A stretch of DNA of 64,000 nt, from positions 5,129 through 69,128 of the forward strand of contig JAFUXI010000066.1 of the NCBI GenBank assembly GCA_017470995.1, in the 5' to 3' direction. Positions 2,717-35,506 of this stretch are shown one piece after another (the stretch's first letter is position 1; each line of letters begins with the position of its first letter). This DNA is from Spirochaetales bacterium (GTDB taxonomy: Bacteria > Spirochaetota > Spirochaetia > Sphaerochaetales > Sphaerochaetaceae). Under the pieces are notes generated by a model. The model searched no databases and was not told the origin of the DNA. It saw only the letters and a list, made by a program, of their open reading frames with translations. Made by a program: the position numbers and the translations under genes.

Positions 2717-3855
2717 ACAGCACAGCCTATGTTGCGATAGACAGATGCGAAAACTATAATCAGGAACAGATATTTTCTTGTCTTAAAGAACTTTGCGAAA
2801 AAGCAAACATGCCGGATGTAAGAGACAGGAAGGTTCTCGTAAAGCCCAATATCCTCTCAGATGCCAAGCCCGAGAACTGCATTACCACCCATCCGGAGGT
2901 CGTGAGGGCCGTAATCCGTATCCTTAAGGAAAACGGAGCCTCCGAGATCTACGTAGGTGATTCCCCGGGCCTTCACAACCCCGGTTTCTGCGGGAAAAAC
3001 TGCGGAATCCAGGATGTCTGCGTCCAGGAAGGGGCAATCTGGTGCAATTTCCTGCAGAATCCCGCAACAAAAAGGATAAACGGAACCAAAACGAAGCTTC
3101 CGATGGCCGGAATACTCGATGAAGTGGACATGGTGTTCTCCGTGTGCAAGTTCAAGACACATACGCTGATGTACTCCACGGGAGCCACAAAGAACCTTTT
3201 CGGTCTGGTTCCGAACCTGAACAAGGCCGTCTGCCACACGAAGTACCCCTCGAAGGAGAGCTTTGCAAAGCTTATCGTAGGAATCCATGAGACAATAAAG
3301 CCCGCATTCTGCATCATGGATGCAATCATAGGAATGGAAGGAGCAGGACCGGCTAACGGTAAACCCAGACCCATAAACATTTTACTTGCATCAGATAGCT
3401 GCTATGCCATGGATACTGCCGAGGCTCTGATCATGGGATATAACGTCGATGATATACCGATTCTCAACGAGGCACGAAGCCGCCATCTCCTTCCTCAGAA
3501 CATCGAATACCCCATTCTGGATGCTAGAAATCTTGTAATTGAGGACTTCGACCGCGTTCCCATAAGCAGAAAGACCCGTTTCATACGTTCGCTCGTCCTT
3601 CCTTTCTTCTCCACTCCTATCCTGAAAAGGAAGCAGAGACGCGAACCGGCCCCTCAATTCAATGACAAAAGGTGCATCCGCTGCCTCAGATGCGTTAATA
3701 TCTGTCCTGCAAAGGCCCTTGAGCTCAAGGAGGAGGCAGATAAGACCAAACATGTGGTCTGTGACTACAAGAAATGCATCAGATGCTACTGCTGCCACGA
3801 GATGTGCCCGGTCGATGCTATTACAGTACACAACAGGGAGAATAAAGAGAAATGA
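2713..3855 (+). CDS. DUF362 domain protein with C-terminal 2x[4Fe-4S] ferredoxin domain
   Basis: Start trimmed to ATG 2713 (ATGA overlap with the upstream stop). Contains a KVLVKPNI DUF362-type core plus CIRCLRCVNICP and CIRCYCCHEMCP cluster motifs. Confidence 0.8.
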   Translation: MNSTAYVAIDRCENYNQEQIFSCLKELCEKANMPDVRDRKVLVKPNILSDAKPENCITTHPEVVRAVIRILKENGASEIYVGDSPGLHNPGFCGKNCGIQDVCVQEGAIWCNFLQNPATKRINGTKTKLPMAGILDEVDMVFSVCKFKTHTLMYSTGATKNLFGLVPNLNKAVCHTKYPSKESFAKLIVGIHETIKPAFCIMDAIIGMEGAGPANGKPRPINILLASDSCYAMDTAEALIMGYNVDDIPILNEARSRHLLPQNIEYPILDARNLVIEDFDRVPISRKTRFIRSLVLPFFSTPILKRKQRREPAPQFNDKRCIRCLRCVNICPAKALELKEEADKTKHVVCDYKKCIRCYCCHEMCPVDAITVHNRENKEK

Positions 3856-10839: not shown

Positions 10840-10990
10840 CTCAGCTCCTCTGCGCACACATGCGCGCACACTATAAAACTAATTAATAAATAGTACCCTA
10901 AAAGCCGACTCTGCGCAATAACCAGAGTCCTAAAATGCAAATATAATTTTAACCCCAAATCACCCTTAAATTCCTAGCAAATTTCTATCG

Positions 10991-11100
10991 TTTCGATATA
11001 ATTCCAATCAGTTCCAATTAGTTTCAATTTGTTTCAATATTTATTCAATATCGTTTACATATTATTTAAATTAATATTCAATATATATTCCAGTCAATTT
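10991..11100. repeat. array of 10-bp-phased TYCAAT motifs in an AT-rich intergenic region
   Basis: Consecutive decamers ATTCCAATCA, GTTCCAATTA, GTTTCAATTT, GTTTCAATAT and TTATTCAATA span 11001-11050. Further ATTCAAT/GTCAAT copies occur near 11076 and 11093. Confidence 0.6.
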
Positions 11101-11194
11101 CCCACGCATTTTGTGCATCCCAAACCCCATGCAAAGGCAAATTCTCCCACATATACGGCGTGCAATGTGATACTTTAGTAAAGGAACAAAATTC

Positions 11195-11365
11195 ATGAAG
11201 TCGGAGGTTGCATATAAGGGGACCCTGAATGTTCGTCTTGGTGAGGGAACTCACAGAAGAGCAGCCATATATGCTCTAACCCATAACCAGAGTCTTAATA
11301 GTTTCATTGATTTCGCAGTCCAGGAAAAATTGGCTGCATACGGGAAAACTGAGGACAAGACCTGA
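11195..11365 (+). CDS. HicB-like / RHH antitoxin (orphan)
   Basis: Below the ORF-track cutoff. Manual translation gives MKSEVAYKGTLNVRLGEGTHRRAAIYALTHNQSLNSFIDFAVQEKLAAYGKTEDKT. The Y.G.LNVRL....HR.AA..A...SLN.FI pattern is typical of COG4226/HicB-like antitoxins. Confidence 0.55.
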   Translation: MKSEVAYKGTLNVRLGEGTHRRAAIYALTHNQSLNSFIDFAVQEKLAAYGKTEDKT

Positions 11366-11384
11366 CTAATTCAGTGAAACTGGC

Positions 11385-11768
11385 TCAGACTCTGAATCCG
11401 GTCATCGTTGCAAATGCAATGAGAAGCCCGTTCTCGTCCTTGACCCGGATCTCATAGAAAACCGTAGTACGTCCGTCCTTGATCCTGCGGGCCTCGGCAA
11501 TCAGTCTGTTTCCTTTGGCAGCATGAAGATAGCTTATCTCGCTGGTCATGGAACAAGCCTGACCGTCACAGGCAGCCCCGTAGCAAAGGTCTGCAAGGGT
11601 GAAGATCGCTCCTCCCATCACTACACCTCTGGCGTTCTTGTGAAAGTCCTTTATATCCATGCTGCAGACAGCATACCCTTCACCGACTTCATCAATCTCA
11701 ATTCCGCTGTGAACAGCGAATCTGTCATCCTCGAAAAAAGCCCTTGTTTCTGCCAAATCTCTTCTCAT
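11385..11768 (-). CDS. PaaI-family hotdog-fold thioesterase
   Basis: Start trimmed to ATG 11768 (RBS AGGTGG). Contains HKNARGVVMGGAIFTLADLCYGAA, with a typical length of about 127 aa. Confidence 0.75.
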   Translation of the reverse strand: MRRDLAETRAFFEDDRFAVHSGIEIDEVGEGYAVCSMDIKDFHKNARGVVMGGAIFTLADLCYGAACDGQACSMTSEISYLHAAKGNRLIAEARRIKDGRTTVFYEIRVKDENGLLIAFATMTGFRV

Positions 11769-11830
11769 ATCGATAAACCACCTGCTTCGGATGATACAGG
11801 ACCATCCTCTTTTCATCAACTCGTTTACCA

Positions 11831-12126
11831 GCGGTCCTGCAGTCGACCGGTCTTGCAGTCCGACAGTCTGACGGTCCTGCAGTTATAGTTTTTTAATTAT
11901 ATATATTAAAAGGTTTTATAATCATTTTGTCTTTAAAAACATTACAGTCTTGCAGTCCTGCAGTCCGACGGTCTTGTCATTTTGACATGACTGCAAGACT
12001 GCAAGACTGACGGACTGTGCCCATTTCAATAGACAATATAACACTAATTTGTTTTATTATAATATTTTATATTTTTCACACTGAAAGACTGCAGGACCGC
12101 AAGACTGCAAGACCGGTCGACCGTCC
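11831..12126. repeat. nested quasi-palindrome built from about 20 copies of the octamer RGTCYKRC (REP-like cluster)
   Basis: Block A 11833-11884 reads GGTCCTGC AGTCGACC GGTCTTGC AGTCCGAC AGTCTGAC GGTCCTGC AGTT. Block B 11946-11977 reads AGTCTTGC AGTCCTGC AGTCCGAC GGTCTTGT. Blocks C (11989-12017) and D (12081-12126) carry the same units on the opposite strand. There is a perfect 19-nt inverted repeat, GTCGACCGGTCTTGCAGTC, at 11842-11860 and 12103-12121. AT-rich spacers of about 60 nt separate A/B and C/D. Confidence 0.85.
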
Positions 12127-12176
12127 AAAACCACAACAGAAAAAAACTAAAAAAACTTCAAAAATCCCCTCGGAAT

Positions 12177-12210
12177 TTCTAATGAAAACGACAGTTTTTC
12201 TGTTATAGGA
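12177..12210 (+). other. 34-nt conserved element, copy 1 (upstream of the HUH gene)
   Basis: TTCTAATGAAAACGACAGTTTTTCTGTTATAGGA matches 17328-17361 at 26 of 34 positions, including CAGTTTTTC and GTTATAGG. Confidence 0.6.
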
Positions 12211-12237
12211 GACAAAGGTCAAAAAAGGAGGTCTGTC

Positions 12238-12987
12238 ATGGCTGAAAACTCAAACCCGAACAGGAAACCCGGAATCGGTAAACGCGGGAACGTCGAAAGA
12301 AACGCAAAGGTCTTTCATGTCGTCCAGAGGACGATGATGAAACTGCCGCTGTTGGAATCGGATCAGGTCTTTGACTATTGGCAATACCATTTCAGAATCT
12401 GCTGCATCGAGGAAAACATCTCGATCCTGTGCTTTACGGTAATGACAAATCATATTCATGCAATAATTTATACTGAAGATTACCGGAGTATAGGTAGAGC
12501 TTTCAGGAGGCTGAATACGGGTCTGAGCCAGTTCATATCAAACAAGCTCATAAAGGATTCGGATTATACAAAGATGTTTCCGGAAGCTGAGGAGTTCAGG
12601 CTCTTCAGTTCCTCTCCGAGGCTGTTTCCCATAGAAGGAACAATACCGCTCTTCATAGACACAAGATATCTGTTCGACAATCCCAAACACCATGGCGCAT
12701 CAAACACAGGGCTCTATTACAGACATTCGAATTTCATGACACTCTACAAGGGTGAATACGAACGCAAAGATCTGCGGCTTTTCTACGACCTGTACAACAT
12801 GTATCCGGGTCAGGTCATGAAGACCATCAGCAAAGGACAGAAGGAATTCATCGAAGCCCTTACTGAAATCTCCCGGAACCTGGACAGACACAAGGAGAAT
12901 CTGGTGTTCAAGGTCAATCCGGACAAAGATTGGACAAGCTCGGCAGAGAACGTCAGAGACGGATATAAATTGTTTGATATTCAGTAG
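12238..12987 (+). CDS. HUH / Y1 tyrosine transposase-like protein (IS200/IS605 TnpA or REP-associated RAYT family)
   Basis: FHVVQRTM...ILCFTVMTNHIHAIIY (HUH motif HIH) followed by TRYLFDNPKHHG (Y-x3-NP catalytic Tyr region). RBS AAGGAGG. 249 aa, longer than a minimal IS200 TnpA. Confidence 0.7.
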   Translation: MAENSNPNRKPGIGKRGNVERNAKVFHVVQRTMMKLPLLESDQVFDYWQYHFRICCIEENISILCFTVMTNHIHAIIYTEDYRSIGRAFRRLNTGLSQFISNKLIKDSDYTKMFPEAEEFRLFSSSPRLFPIEGTIPLFIDTRYLFDNPKHHGASNTGLYYRHSNFMTLYKGEYERKDLRLFYDLYNMYPGQVMKTISKGQKEFIEALTEISRNLDRHKENLVFKVNPDKDWTSSAENVRDGYKLFDIQ

Positions 12988-12999
12988 ATGATAAAGATT

Positions 13000-34252: not shown

Positions 34253-35506
34253 TCAGGCGGTTTTCTCGGAAGATCTGATTCTCCTTGAAACAAGGTATAG
34301 GAGAATGCAGAGAACTATCACTACTGCGAATGCGGCGAACCAGATGCTCCTGTTCGGCAAAAACGATGTGGTTCCGTCGCTGTTTACGATGACCTCGGCG
34401 TTCCTGAGCACGGCAGCTCCGATTGCAGGACCGATGAGGCCGGGCACGAAAACCTGCCCTATGATCCTCACGCCCTGGAACTGACCGGAGCGGTTCTCCG
34501 GGATATTGTCCCTGATCATGGCGCCGAAGACGCTCATGCCGGTAAGATATCCGCCCAGCATCAGCATGGAGCCGATGAGCACGGGAACGACCGAACGACA
34601 GAAGTACAAGATCACATAGCCGGCACAGAGCATCACGACCACAGGTCTCATGCTGAACATAAAGCCTTTCTTGTCATAGGTCTTTCCATAGAGGGCGGTA
34701 AGCACGGCAGCGGCTATGATCGCCGGCGCCATGATTATCACGTAATTGGCAATGCCGAGGGTCTTCTCATAGTAGATTATCAAATACGGCATGAATATCT
34801 GAATGGAGATTCCGAACACCGCAAACAGTCCCAGGACCTCATACAAAAGGATGTTCTCTTTGAAAACCGATGGCCTGAAACTATACAATAGCGTCTGAAT
34901 CATTGAGTCTTCACTCTTTTTGAGCCCTTTTGCGTCTTCAATCAGGAACAGGCCTGCAAGACCGATGAGGAAGGTATCTCCGCAGATGATGTAGTAGATG
35001 GTGACCCAGCTTCCCTGCTTGTCCAGATCGAATCCCATGAACGATCCGAACACCACGAGAACCGATACCAGGGGCATCATGGAGTTCATTCCCTCGATCC
35101 TGCCGCGGTTGGTGCTATCGCCCCTGTCCGTGAGCCAGGCATTGTATGCTGCATCGTTTGCAGTGGAACCGAAGAAGGTCATCACGCAGTCCATGACAAT
35201 CGTGAGCATGACGTTCCTGATGTAGGCGAAGACTATGATGGACAGTCCCCAGAGCATGTAGCCGTAGCTCATGAAGGCCTTGCGGCGGCCTACCTTGTCC
35301 GACAGCGCGCCCATGACTATCGTGGTCAGCGCTGCCATGACGGCACTGGCCATGACCATTGCGGAAATCTGCGATGCCGTCGCATGGAACATCTTGTAGA
35401 TGAACACGTTGAAGTACATGTTCTCGACCACCCATGCTATCTGGCCCATCAGCCCGAACACCAGCATGGAGATCCAGAACCTCTTTCCCAATCTACTTTC
35501 ACTCAT
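34253..35506 (-). CDS. MFS transporter
   Basis: 417 aa with about 12 TM helices. Contains a GALSDKVGRRKAF loop motif. Confidence 0.8.
   Translation of the reverse strand: MSESRLGKRFWISMLVFGLMGQIAWVVENMYFNVFIYKMFHATASQISAMVMASAVMAALTTIVMGALSDKVGRRKAFMSYGYMLWGLSIIVFAYIRNVMLTIVMDCVMTFFGSTANDAAYNAWLTDRGDSTNRGRIEGMNSMMPLVSVLVVFGSFMGFDLDKQGSWVTIYYIICGDTFLIGLAGLFLIEDAKGLKKSEDSMIQTLLYSFRPSVFKENILLYEVLGLFAVFGISIQIFMPYLIIYYEKTLGIANYVIIMAPAIIAAAVLTALYGKTYDKKGFMFSMRPVVVMLCAGYVILYFCRSVVPVLIGSMLMLGGYLTGMSVFGAMIRDNIPENRSGQFQGVRIIGQVFVPGLIGPAIGAAVLRNAEVIVNSDGTTSFLPNRSIWFAAFAVVIVLCILLYLVSRRIRSSEKTA

Follow-up and report, generated by a model that had tools for sequence, protein, structure and literature searches.

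Octamer arrays in four inverted blocks beside a RAYT-like HUH gene of Sphaerochaetaceae: a candidate cognate DNA partner for a divergent Y1 enzyme

The locus described here lies in a 64-kb stretch of Sphaerochaetaceae DNA, to which we refer as the window, and comprises an array of about 300 bp (11833-12124), built from some 20 units of 8 nt, and a top-strand gene (12238-12987) encoding a 249-aa RAYT-like class-2 Y1 HUH protein. Direct reading of the sequence resolves the array into four G+C-rich blocks that hold their units in strict register, with six and four units on the top strand (blocks A and B) and four and five to six on the bottom strand (blocks C and D). Block A (11833-11883), the outer left arm, consists of six RGTCYKRC octamers followed by AGT, in the order GGTCCTGC AGTCGACC GGTCTTGC AGTCCGAC AGTCTGAC GGTCCTGC AGT, with GTC recurring at 11834+8n, while block B (11944-11979), the inner left arm, contains the four octamers AGTCTTGC AGTCCTGC AGTCCGAC GGTCTTGT at 11946-11977. 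A central T-rich turn (11980-11982, in the context TGTCA TTT TGACA) places the symmetry axis near 11981.5. On the bottom strand, block C (11983-12018), the inner right arm, reads AGTCCGTC AGTCTTGC AGTCTTGC AGTCATGT, its four units running from 12016 to 11985, and block D (12080-12124), the outer right arm, reads GGTCGACC GGTCTTGC AGTCTTGC GGTCCTGC AGTCTTTC from 12122 to 12083. The arm coordinates of two inverted repeats detected in the array, I1 and I3, add up to 23963 and 23962, so that outer and inner arms share one common axis. The palindrome GACCGGTC is a landmark of the outer blocks, at 11845-11852 in block A and at 12111-12118 in block D; it occurs four times in the window, against 0.9 expected, and two of these four occurrences fall within the array.

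The structure is real, is not random and is under functional constraint. Within each of the four blocks GTC (or GAC) falls into a single residue class modulo 8, and TRF and a repeat finder likewise pick up the 8-nt period and the inverted arms, confirming the four blocks, the roughly 20 octamers and the 8-nt register put forward in the original prediction. Runs of three or more consecutive RGTCNNNN units are confined to these four blocks across the 64-kb window, and no dispersed copies of the array were found in the window outside them. A lag-8 self-similarity scan of the window returned the array blocks and one marginal match at 34569-34616, in a stretch with long open ORFs, and the earlier claim that the window holds no similar array thus stands with that single qualification. 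RGTCYKRC itself occurs 13 times in the approximately 300 bp of the array and 50 times in the window, where 31 occurrences are expected by chance, an excess that is due to the array locus alone.

Two AT-rich spacers of about 60 nt, S1 (11884-11943) and S2 (12019-12079), separate the outer from the inner blocks. Their length and composition are as originally described, but they are not featureless, since each carries an AT-rich near-palindrome of about 24 bp that is conserved across lineages (alignment A2). The core of the S1 motif is the near-palindrome TTTAATTATATATATTAAAA at 11892-11911 (repeat I19 and alignment A2); that of S2 is TAATTTGTTTTATTATAATATTTTA at 12045-12069, which fits the family consensus TAATTTnTTATAnTATAAnAAATTA and is its sole match in the 64-kb window, with 0 expected. 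The conserved spacer motif could be bound by a host factor instead of the HUH protein. About 65 bp beyond the 3' end of the array, and approximately 30 nt before the ATG of the gene, lies a putative promoter-proximal element on the top strand (12190-12210; GACAGTTTTTCTGTTATAGGA with the -10-like TGTTATAGG), which is conserved, as judged by eye, in most upstream regions of the family; a promoter scan returned no more sites than were found in shuffled sequence.

The protein carries NH[IY]H at residues 71-74 and Y144-LFD-N148-P149 (Y-x3-NP), and NHxH together with Y-x3-NP constitutes the signature of class 2 TnpAY1, that is, of the RAYT/TnpAREP class (PMC6006769). In an alignment of 18 homologues H72, H74, Y144, N148 and P149 are invariant, which argues that catalysis is under selection. 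The sequence matches to established models are weak, reaching 20.8 bits for Pfam Y1_Tnp (PF01797; cut-off 23) and 25.3 bits for the NCBIfam model of REP-associated tyrosine transposases (NF047646; cut-off 80), the latter shortfall counting against the interpretation that we favour below, and a PDB sequence search with the family profile yielded no match. For the AlphaFold (AF2) model (pLDDT 83, pTM 0.83), the best Foldseek match is 4ER8_A, the E. coli RAYT on a REP hairpin (E = 7e-6, target-normalised TM 0.72 over 164 columns), followed by the ISDra2 and IS608 transposases. The active-site residues and the fold match bear out the original assignment of the adjoining gene to HUH/Y1 enzymes, and the protein is a divergent class-2 Y1 HUH enzyme of the RAYT (TnpAREP) kind. 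To this catalytic core are added a basic, conserved N-terminal tail (RKPGxGKRGN) and a helical C-terminal domain of about 85 aa, neither of which has assignable relatives; residues 160-249 show no Pfam match and no recognisable DNA-binding domain, and the C-terminal domain modelled alone gave moderate confidence and no PDB fold match.

The family is small, with just 19 clusters, none of them named, among 5.8 billion proteins; an exhaustive profile search retrieved one 50%-identity cluster for the family and distant full-length relatives at about 22% identity, some of which score above the Pfam Y1_Tnp cut-off. All genome matches are to MAGs of Sphaerochaetaceae or Spirochaetales recovered from rumen and faeces, and PADLOC, PHROGs, plasmid and phage searches returned no relatives, the protein being absent from defence-system libraries. 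The anti-sigma protein encoded nearby falls into 255 clusters, compared with 19 for the HUH protein.

Eleven distinct loci encoding homologues at 47-96% identity to the window protein were read (L238, L001, L003, L005, L006, L007, L008, L249, L251, L252 and L262). The original prediction had named relatives that keep the gene and lack the array as evidence against it; the opposite was found, and in 11/11 loci the gene is accompanied by an array of the same four-block layout, two blocks per strand, with a T-rich turn and two AT-rich spacers. What differs is the unit: RGTCYKRC in the window and L001 is replaced by TTCAGTnn in L249, ACTCTnnn in L003, GCGCTCnn in L005, GATGCTCn in L008 and L262, GACTGTTT in L006, and AGGTC, ACGGTYC and GGAGGTC in L007, L251 and L252, and these octamer types track the protein clades. 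Most of the other loci read have, in their outer blocks, a palindrome identical or nearly identical to GACCGGTC; block A of L249 and that of L008 show no clear match to it. The flanks of the ten other loci (5-13 kb around each) contain a second array only in L008, as a module-flanking copy, and the distant relative P0029, which shares about 22% identity with the family, lacks an octamer array upstream of its gene, so the array is specific to the Sphaerochaetaceae family. Taken as a whole, these sequence comparisons establish the association of array and gene, the conservation of the array architecture and the co-variation of array and protein.

Other repeats were noticed near some of these arrays. 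Just upstream of the array in L001 (5395-5610) a unit of about 22-24 nt, AGCCCGATGYCCYTTTTCGYAG, can be seen by eye to recur some eight times in imperfect form (TRF made no call), and GCACAG-rich repeats occupy the equivalent position in L249 (2900-3000). The AT-rich stretch between the HUH gene and valS contains recurring GAAATTGTAC motifs in both L003 (2092-2300) and L005 (4727-4940).

Comparison of the window with L238, which belongs to the same species (94.6% identical), reveals 2/171 changes in the blocks against 32/268 in other intergenic DNA (Fisher p = 1e-5), with identical unit counts in all four blocks and no unit gained or lost. At the level of sequence this demonstrates purifying selection on the blocks within a species, and near-invariant blocks with a fixed unit count are the opposite of a slippage-prone microsatellite. 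Between lineages the units have changed in parallel. The flanks of L003 and L005 are 87-88% identical, their proteins 84% identical and their arrays alignable unit by unit; from one to the other, essentially every unit in all four blocks bears the same substitutions (ACTCT to GCGCTC), and L005 retains a fossil of the old block A, a case of concerted evolution of some 20 units together with the protein. The HUH gene shows a dN of 0.205 and saturated dS between the window and L249, whereas the neighbouring ValRS, sigma and anti-sigma genes show dN of 0.003-0.04 and dS of 0.27-0.67. Whether by evolution or by exchange, the HUH gene changes much faster than the genes beside it.

These patterns bear directly on whether the array might have arisen by slippage as simple sequence (LSSR type), or be a contingency locus, with no specific protein partner and akin to the 7-/8-nt tandem arrays of some Bacteroidota, cyanobacterial and Beggiatoaceae genomes. 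Short tandem repeats are known to be sporadically abundant in some phyla (PMC4679880), and a pattern search located arrays of window-type octamers, (GTCTTGCR)n, in at least 120 metagenome contigs. Among the matches listed, only L238 derives from the window's species and encodes the HUH family; the remaining listed contigs look like Bacteroidota by their proteins and have no Y1 gene within reach. These Bacteroidota-like contigs carry numerous (GTCTTGCR)n arrays in intergenic DNA, 5-20 units long and often located right at the end of a gene or, as inverted pairs, where two genes converge (for instance L147:3249-3403, L140:1554-1652 and L155:6311-6446), and the 708 kb of contigs L129-L248 contain 113 arrays of heptamers (e.g. 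GCACAGG) and 159 of octamers, those of GTCTTGCR type included. Because these arrays occur among many other 7-/8-nt arrays and in the absence of a Y1 gene, we rejected them as dispersed copies of the window array and assign them to a distinct, already described class of simple-sequence repeat. For the window array itself slippage is a very improbable origin, given that its unit number is unchanged with respect to L238 at 5% divergence, that the four-block inverted architecture and spacer motif are kept in every lineage despite replacement of the octamer, and that the array goes strictly with a single gene family.

In viral contigs the generic pattern of six GTC at 8-nt intervals (6xGTC@8) retrieved only (GTCT)n and perfect 8-mer microsatellites, plus contig L119, in which six heterogeneous RGTC octamers (2473-2520) precede a 157-aa ORF by about 300 nt, without the four-block architecture; control patterns gave too few matches in these contigs for calibration. 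A search of the literature for literal sequence matches returned none.

The position of the module in the chromosome is variable. A close relative, L256, has the window's gene order, AckA-CysRS-sigma-anti-sigma-ValRS, with an empty intergenic site of 283 bp, from which the segment corresponding to 11056-12990 of the window, encompassing a truncated hicB, a thioesterase gene, the array and the HUH gene, is missing; one junction of this segment falls 3 nt beyond the HUH stop codon. L006 carries the module inverted relative to the window between the same neighbours, and across lineages at least five genomic contexts are represented. Most loci have the array on the 5' side of the gene; in L262 a complete array lies on the 3' side and a remnant alone upstream; and L008 has an array on either side, and these two arrays (177-471 and 3135-3432) are reverse complements, 87.6% identical over 298 nt, and bracket the HUH gene and a carboxylesterase gene. 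Gene and array therefore constitute an accessory module whose presence or absence, position and orientation vary. This mobility could derive wholly from homologous recombination of the flanks after transfer, and not from the enzyme.

Several features of the surrounding DNA were recorded in passing. The HUH gene of L008 (543-1281) is split by a frameshift near 1045-1154, which could reflect either a pseudogene or an assembly error. In the window, a 56-aa HicB-like ORF (11195-11365) preserves only the C-terminal part of a hicAB toxin-antitoxin pair; in L238 (533-1146) both genes are present, hicA intact (85 aa) and hicB at full length (119 aa), within some 690 bp missing from the window. Upstream of valS, the window contains AT-rich repeats with a 10-11-nt period (10987-11092; ATTGAA/ATTGTA type). 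Repeats of this kind are also found ahead of valS in L256 and L003, whether the HUH module is there or not, and might act as a valS leader or regulatory element. GC skew was too weak for assignment of the leading and lagging strands.

The inverted arms of the array can pair, but their pairing is not that of a unique hairpin. The 19-mer GTCGACCGGTCTTGCAGTC (11842-11860) is a perfect complement of 12103-12121, as first reported for blocks A and D, and folding of the array as single-stranded DNA yields nested A:D and B:C stems (-66 kcal/mol, z = -10.8). The proposed hairpin of B and C is thus present among the nested stems, but the best B:C pairing, at 95% over 21 nt, lies off the symmetric register, and A:D complementarity is nearly equal in three registers 8 nt apart (76, 78 and 71%). 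The potential of the arms to pair stems from the unit that the inverted arrays share, rather than from selection of a unique hairpin. A symmetry-axis scan across loci was too noisy to reveal a preferred register. With no register preferred, selection for a particular secondary structure is not evident, which weighs against the interpretation that we favour. The spacing of the spacer motifs carries similar weight. Their centres are 151 nt apart in the window, and this distance is found in four lineages with unrelated octamers; elsewhere it measures 148, 139, 130 or 108-110 nt. The spacings of 130 and 109 nt differ from 151 by 21 and 42 nt, that is, by steps of 21 nt or two helical turns, pointing to a constraint on duplex DNA that again counts against our favoured interpretation.

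Both observations favour the main rival explanation, according to which the array is a multi-site platform of duplex DNA, operator or partition-like, where the protein occupies successive 8-bp units and regulates the gene or organises DNA, catalysis being irrelevant to the array. The protein would spiral along the helix, with a dimer or a host bending protein on each AT-rich palindrome. Ribbon-helix-helix proteins (omega of pSM19035, ParR/parC) bind heptad or iteron arrays in operators or centromeres, and omega and ParR-type proteins spiral along 7-bp or iteron arrays in duplex DNA. The window array shares with these systems its contiguous short units (7-8 bp), direct and inverted and here in strict 8-bp register, beside the gene of a putative binding protein, and the platform explanation gains further from the strong purifying selection within a species and from the location of most arrays upstream of the gene's conserved -10-like element. 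It fares less well with the complete array that lies 3' of the gene in L262, and with the 65 bp or so that separate the array from the -10-like element, a distance that leaves the promoter free of overlap and is far for a repressor. Unlike the partners of ribbon-helix-helix arrays, the protein belongs to the HUH enzymes and its active site is conserved, the invariant HUH and Tyr residues indicating that catalysis is under selection, and its C-terminal domain lacks a recognisable DNA-binding domain. No ribbon-helix-helix gene is conserved with the array, the only one nearby being the hicB remnant, which is missing from other loci. Finally, known Y1 enzymes require single-stranded substrates (PMC3333891). 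We consider the duplex platform a serious possibility, though an unlikely one; it is compatible with the array being the cognate partner of the enzyme, and the two explanations are not mutually exclusive.

Among described systems, REPtrons (E. coli yafM, 4ER8; class 2 TnpAY1, PMC6006769) resemble the module in the Y1 HUH fold, NHxH and Y-x3-NP of the protein, in an apparently single-copy gene, and in co-evolving cognate repeats that lie beside it in inverted pairs; the AT-rich linker between the inverted repeats here also recalls BIME linkers with IHF sites. The module departs from REPtrons in its 8-nt units, set in contiguous arrays of 4-10 rather than in tagged palindromes of 20-40 nt, in its fixed four-block layout with two conserved AT palindromes of about 24 bp, and in that no dispersal was seen in the DNA examined. 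The protein differs from REPtron proteins in the extra basic N-terminal tail and 85-aa C-terminal domain, and scores far below the curated RAYT model. The original prediction had named a REP/BIME-type cluster with its RAYT. An ordinary dispersed REP, REPIN or BIME family, of which this copy would be the cluster beside the RAYT gene, would account for the RAYT-like protein, for inverted arms that could form long hairpins, and for the location of the array, given that REPtrons typically place repeats beside the RAYT gene (PMC6006769). The tie between the array and a RAYT-like gene stands, but neither the array sequence nor the repeat search disclosed a GTAG- or CGTC-tagged 20-40-nt palindrome beside the gene, and a dispersed family is highly unlikely in view of the single array of the 64-kb window and of flanks that, over ten loci, show the second copy of L008 only. 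To our knowledge, the octamer unit is far shorter than any known REP, a point that, like the lack of a GTAG/CGTC head, also tells against our own reading.

A second parallel is provided by TIRtrons, whose TIRYT proteins are RAYT relatives of about 240 aa with a C-terminal extension and no genomic REP family, encoded by genes bracketed by inverted repeats (PMC3733652). The L008 gene, bracketed by two 300-bp arrays in inverted orientation, conforms to this arrangement, unlike the window, where the array lies on the 5' side only, and unlike most loci, which have a single array. The TIRs of TIRtrons are short and often GGGGWSAS, a motif that was not found here, and the C-terminal HTH of TIRtron subclass 2.1 (Bac_DnaA_C, HTH_23, HTH_28-like) was not found in the family protein.

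With IS200/IS605 elements (IS608, ISDra2) the module shares the catalytic fold and, plausibly, a dependence on hairpin-forming DNA by the gene. The earlier suggestion that the array represents the subterminal hairpins of such an element is nonetheless contradicted by Y-x3-NP in place of Y-x3-Q, by the lack of an LE/RE pair of subterminal hairpins and of tnpB, by a single copy in the window with no multi-copy identical elements, and by a structure that is one-sided in most loci, with mostly nothing conserved 3' of the gene. The last of the initial suggestions, a rolling-circle-type origin, belongs to a wider explanation in which the array is the replication or transfer origin, with iterons and a nick hairpin, of a rolling-circle-type HUH protein, or else a structured RNA. 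Iteron-like units by AT-rich DNA and a central hairpin are suggestive of an origin, and HUH proteins do include Rep proteins and relaxases; the fold, however, is that of Y1 transposases and RAYTs and not of Rep proteins or relaxases, the locus is chromosomal and single, without plasmid or phage relatives, and we found nothing in support of a rolling-circle origin. For an RNA, an Rfam search of the array gave spurious miRNA-hairpin matches alone and no known RNA family, and the promoter-like element lies downstream of the array. Neither version of this explanation is credible to more than a slight degree.

On balance, we think it more likely than not that the array acts in cis as the cognate DNA partner to the RAYT-like HUH protein, and that together they form a REPtron/TIRtron-like, self-contained, rare, patchy and relocatable module of Sphaerochaetaceae. 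The attachment of the array to the gene on any side and in any orientation, the invariant active site, the RAYT-like fold and the co-variation of array and protein jointly point to the cognate DNA of a Y1 enzyme, and we read the module as a variation on the REPtron/TIRtron theme with an unusual octamer-array partner whose repeats would never have dispersed. Two further observations speak against this reading: within single species, no evidence was obtained of forms that are excised, circular or inverted, and arrays are identical between independent assemblies (L001/L002 and L003/L004).

From the patterns above we infer that the HUH protein binds the units, that the DNA becomes single-stranded, and that cleavage and a homogenising mechanism follow. 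Each 8-nt unit would constitute one recognition element for the protein, and the units would be displayed on the inverted arms A/D and B/C. AT-rich flanks are linked to cruciform extrusion, and the easily melted AT-rich spacers that flank the inner B-C inverted repeat might aid opening or extrusion, generating the hairpin or single-stranded forms that Y1 enzymes require. The HUH/Tyr144 centre could then cleave and rejoin DNA inside the array, and repeated cleavage, priming and strand transfer would keep the units alike, for which a precedent exists in E. coli TnpAREP acting on BIMEs in vitro, an enzyme that binds ssREP, cleaves both BIME strands and, through strand transfer, generates BIMEs in tandem (PMC3333891). 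Homogenisation by strand transfer would explain how all units switch together between lineages, and the same activity may occasionally duplicate, invert or move the module. A bolder proposal, doubtful enough to be called speculative, is that the locus exemplifies a new type of Y1 HUH system, in which the enzyme would read a modular 8-nt code and continually rewrite a private array by cleavage and strand transfer, so that protein specificity and some 20 units switch together. The result would be a non-dispersing, self-maintaining element whose arrays can be used as ends, as L008 might illustrate, for moving or inverting itself and its cargo.

Should the octamer truly be what the enzyme recognises, no Y1 enzyme would have a shorter known modular target, and this would be of practical interest, given that HUH proteins serve as sequence-specific DNA-protein coupling tags. 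The family, with one gene, one array and about 20 short units, offers a compact natural experiment on RAYT-type repeat recognition and propagation. Several of its lineages have swapped all units in parallel while keeping the scaffold, which would make both the determinants of specificity and the homogenisation process testable between relatives such as L003 and L005.
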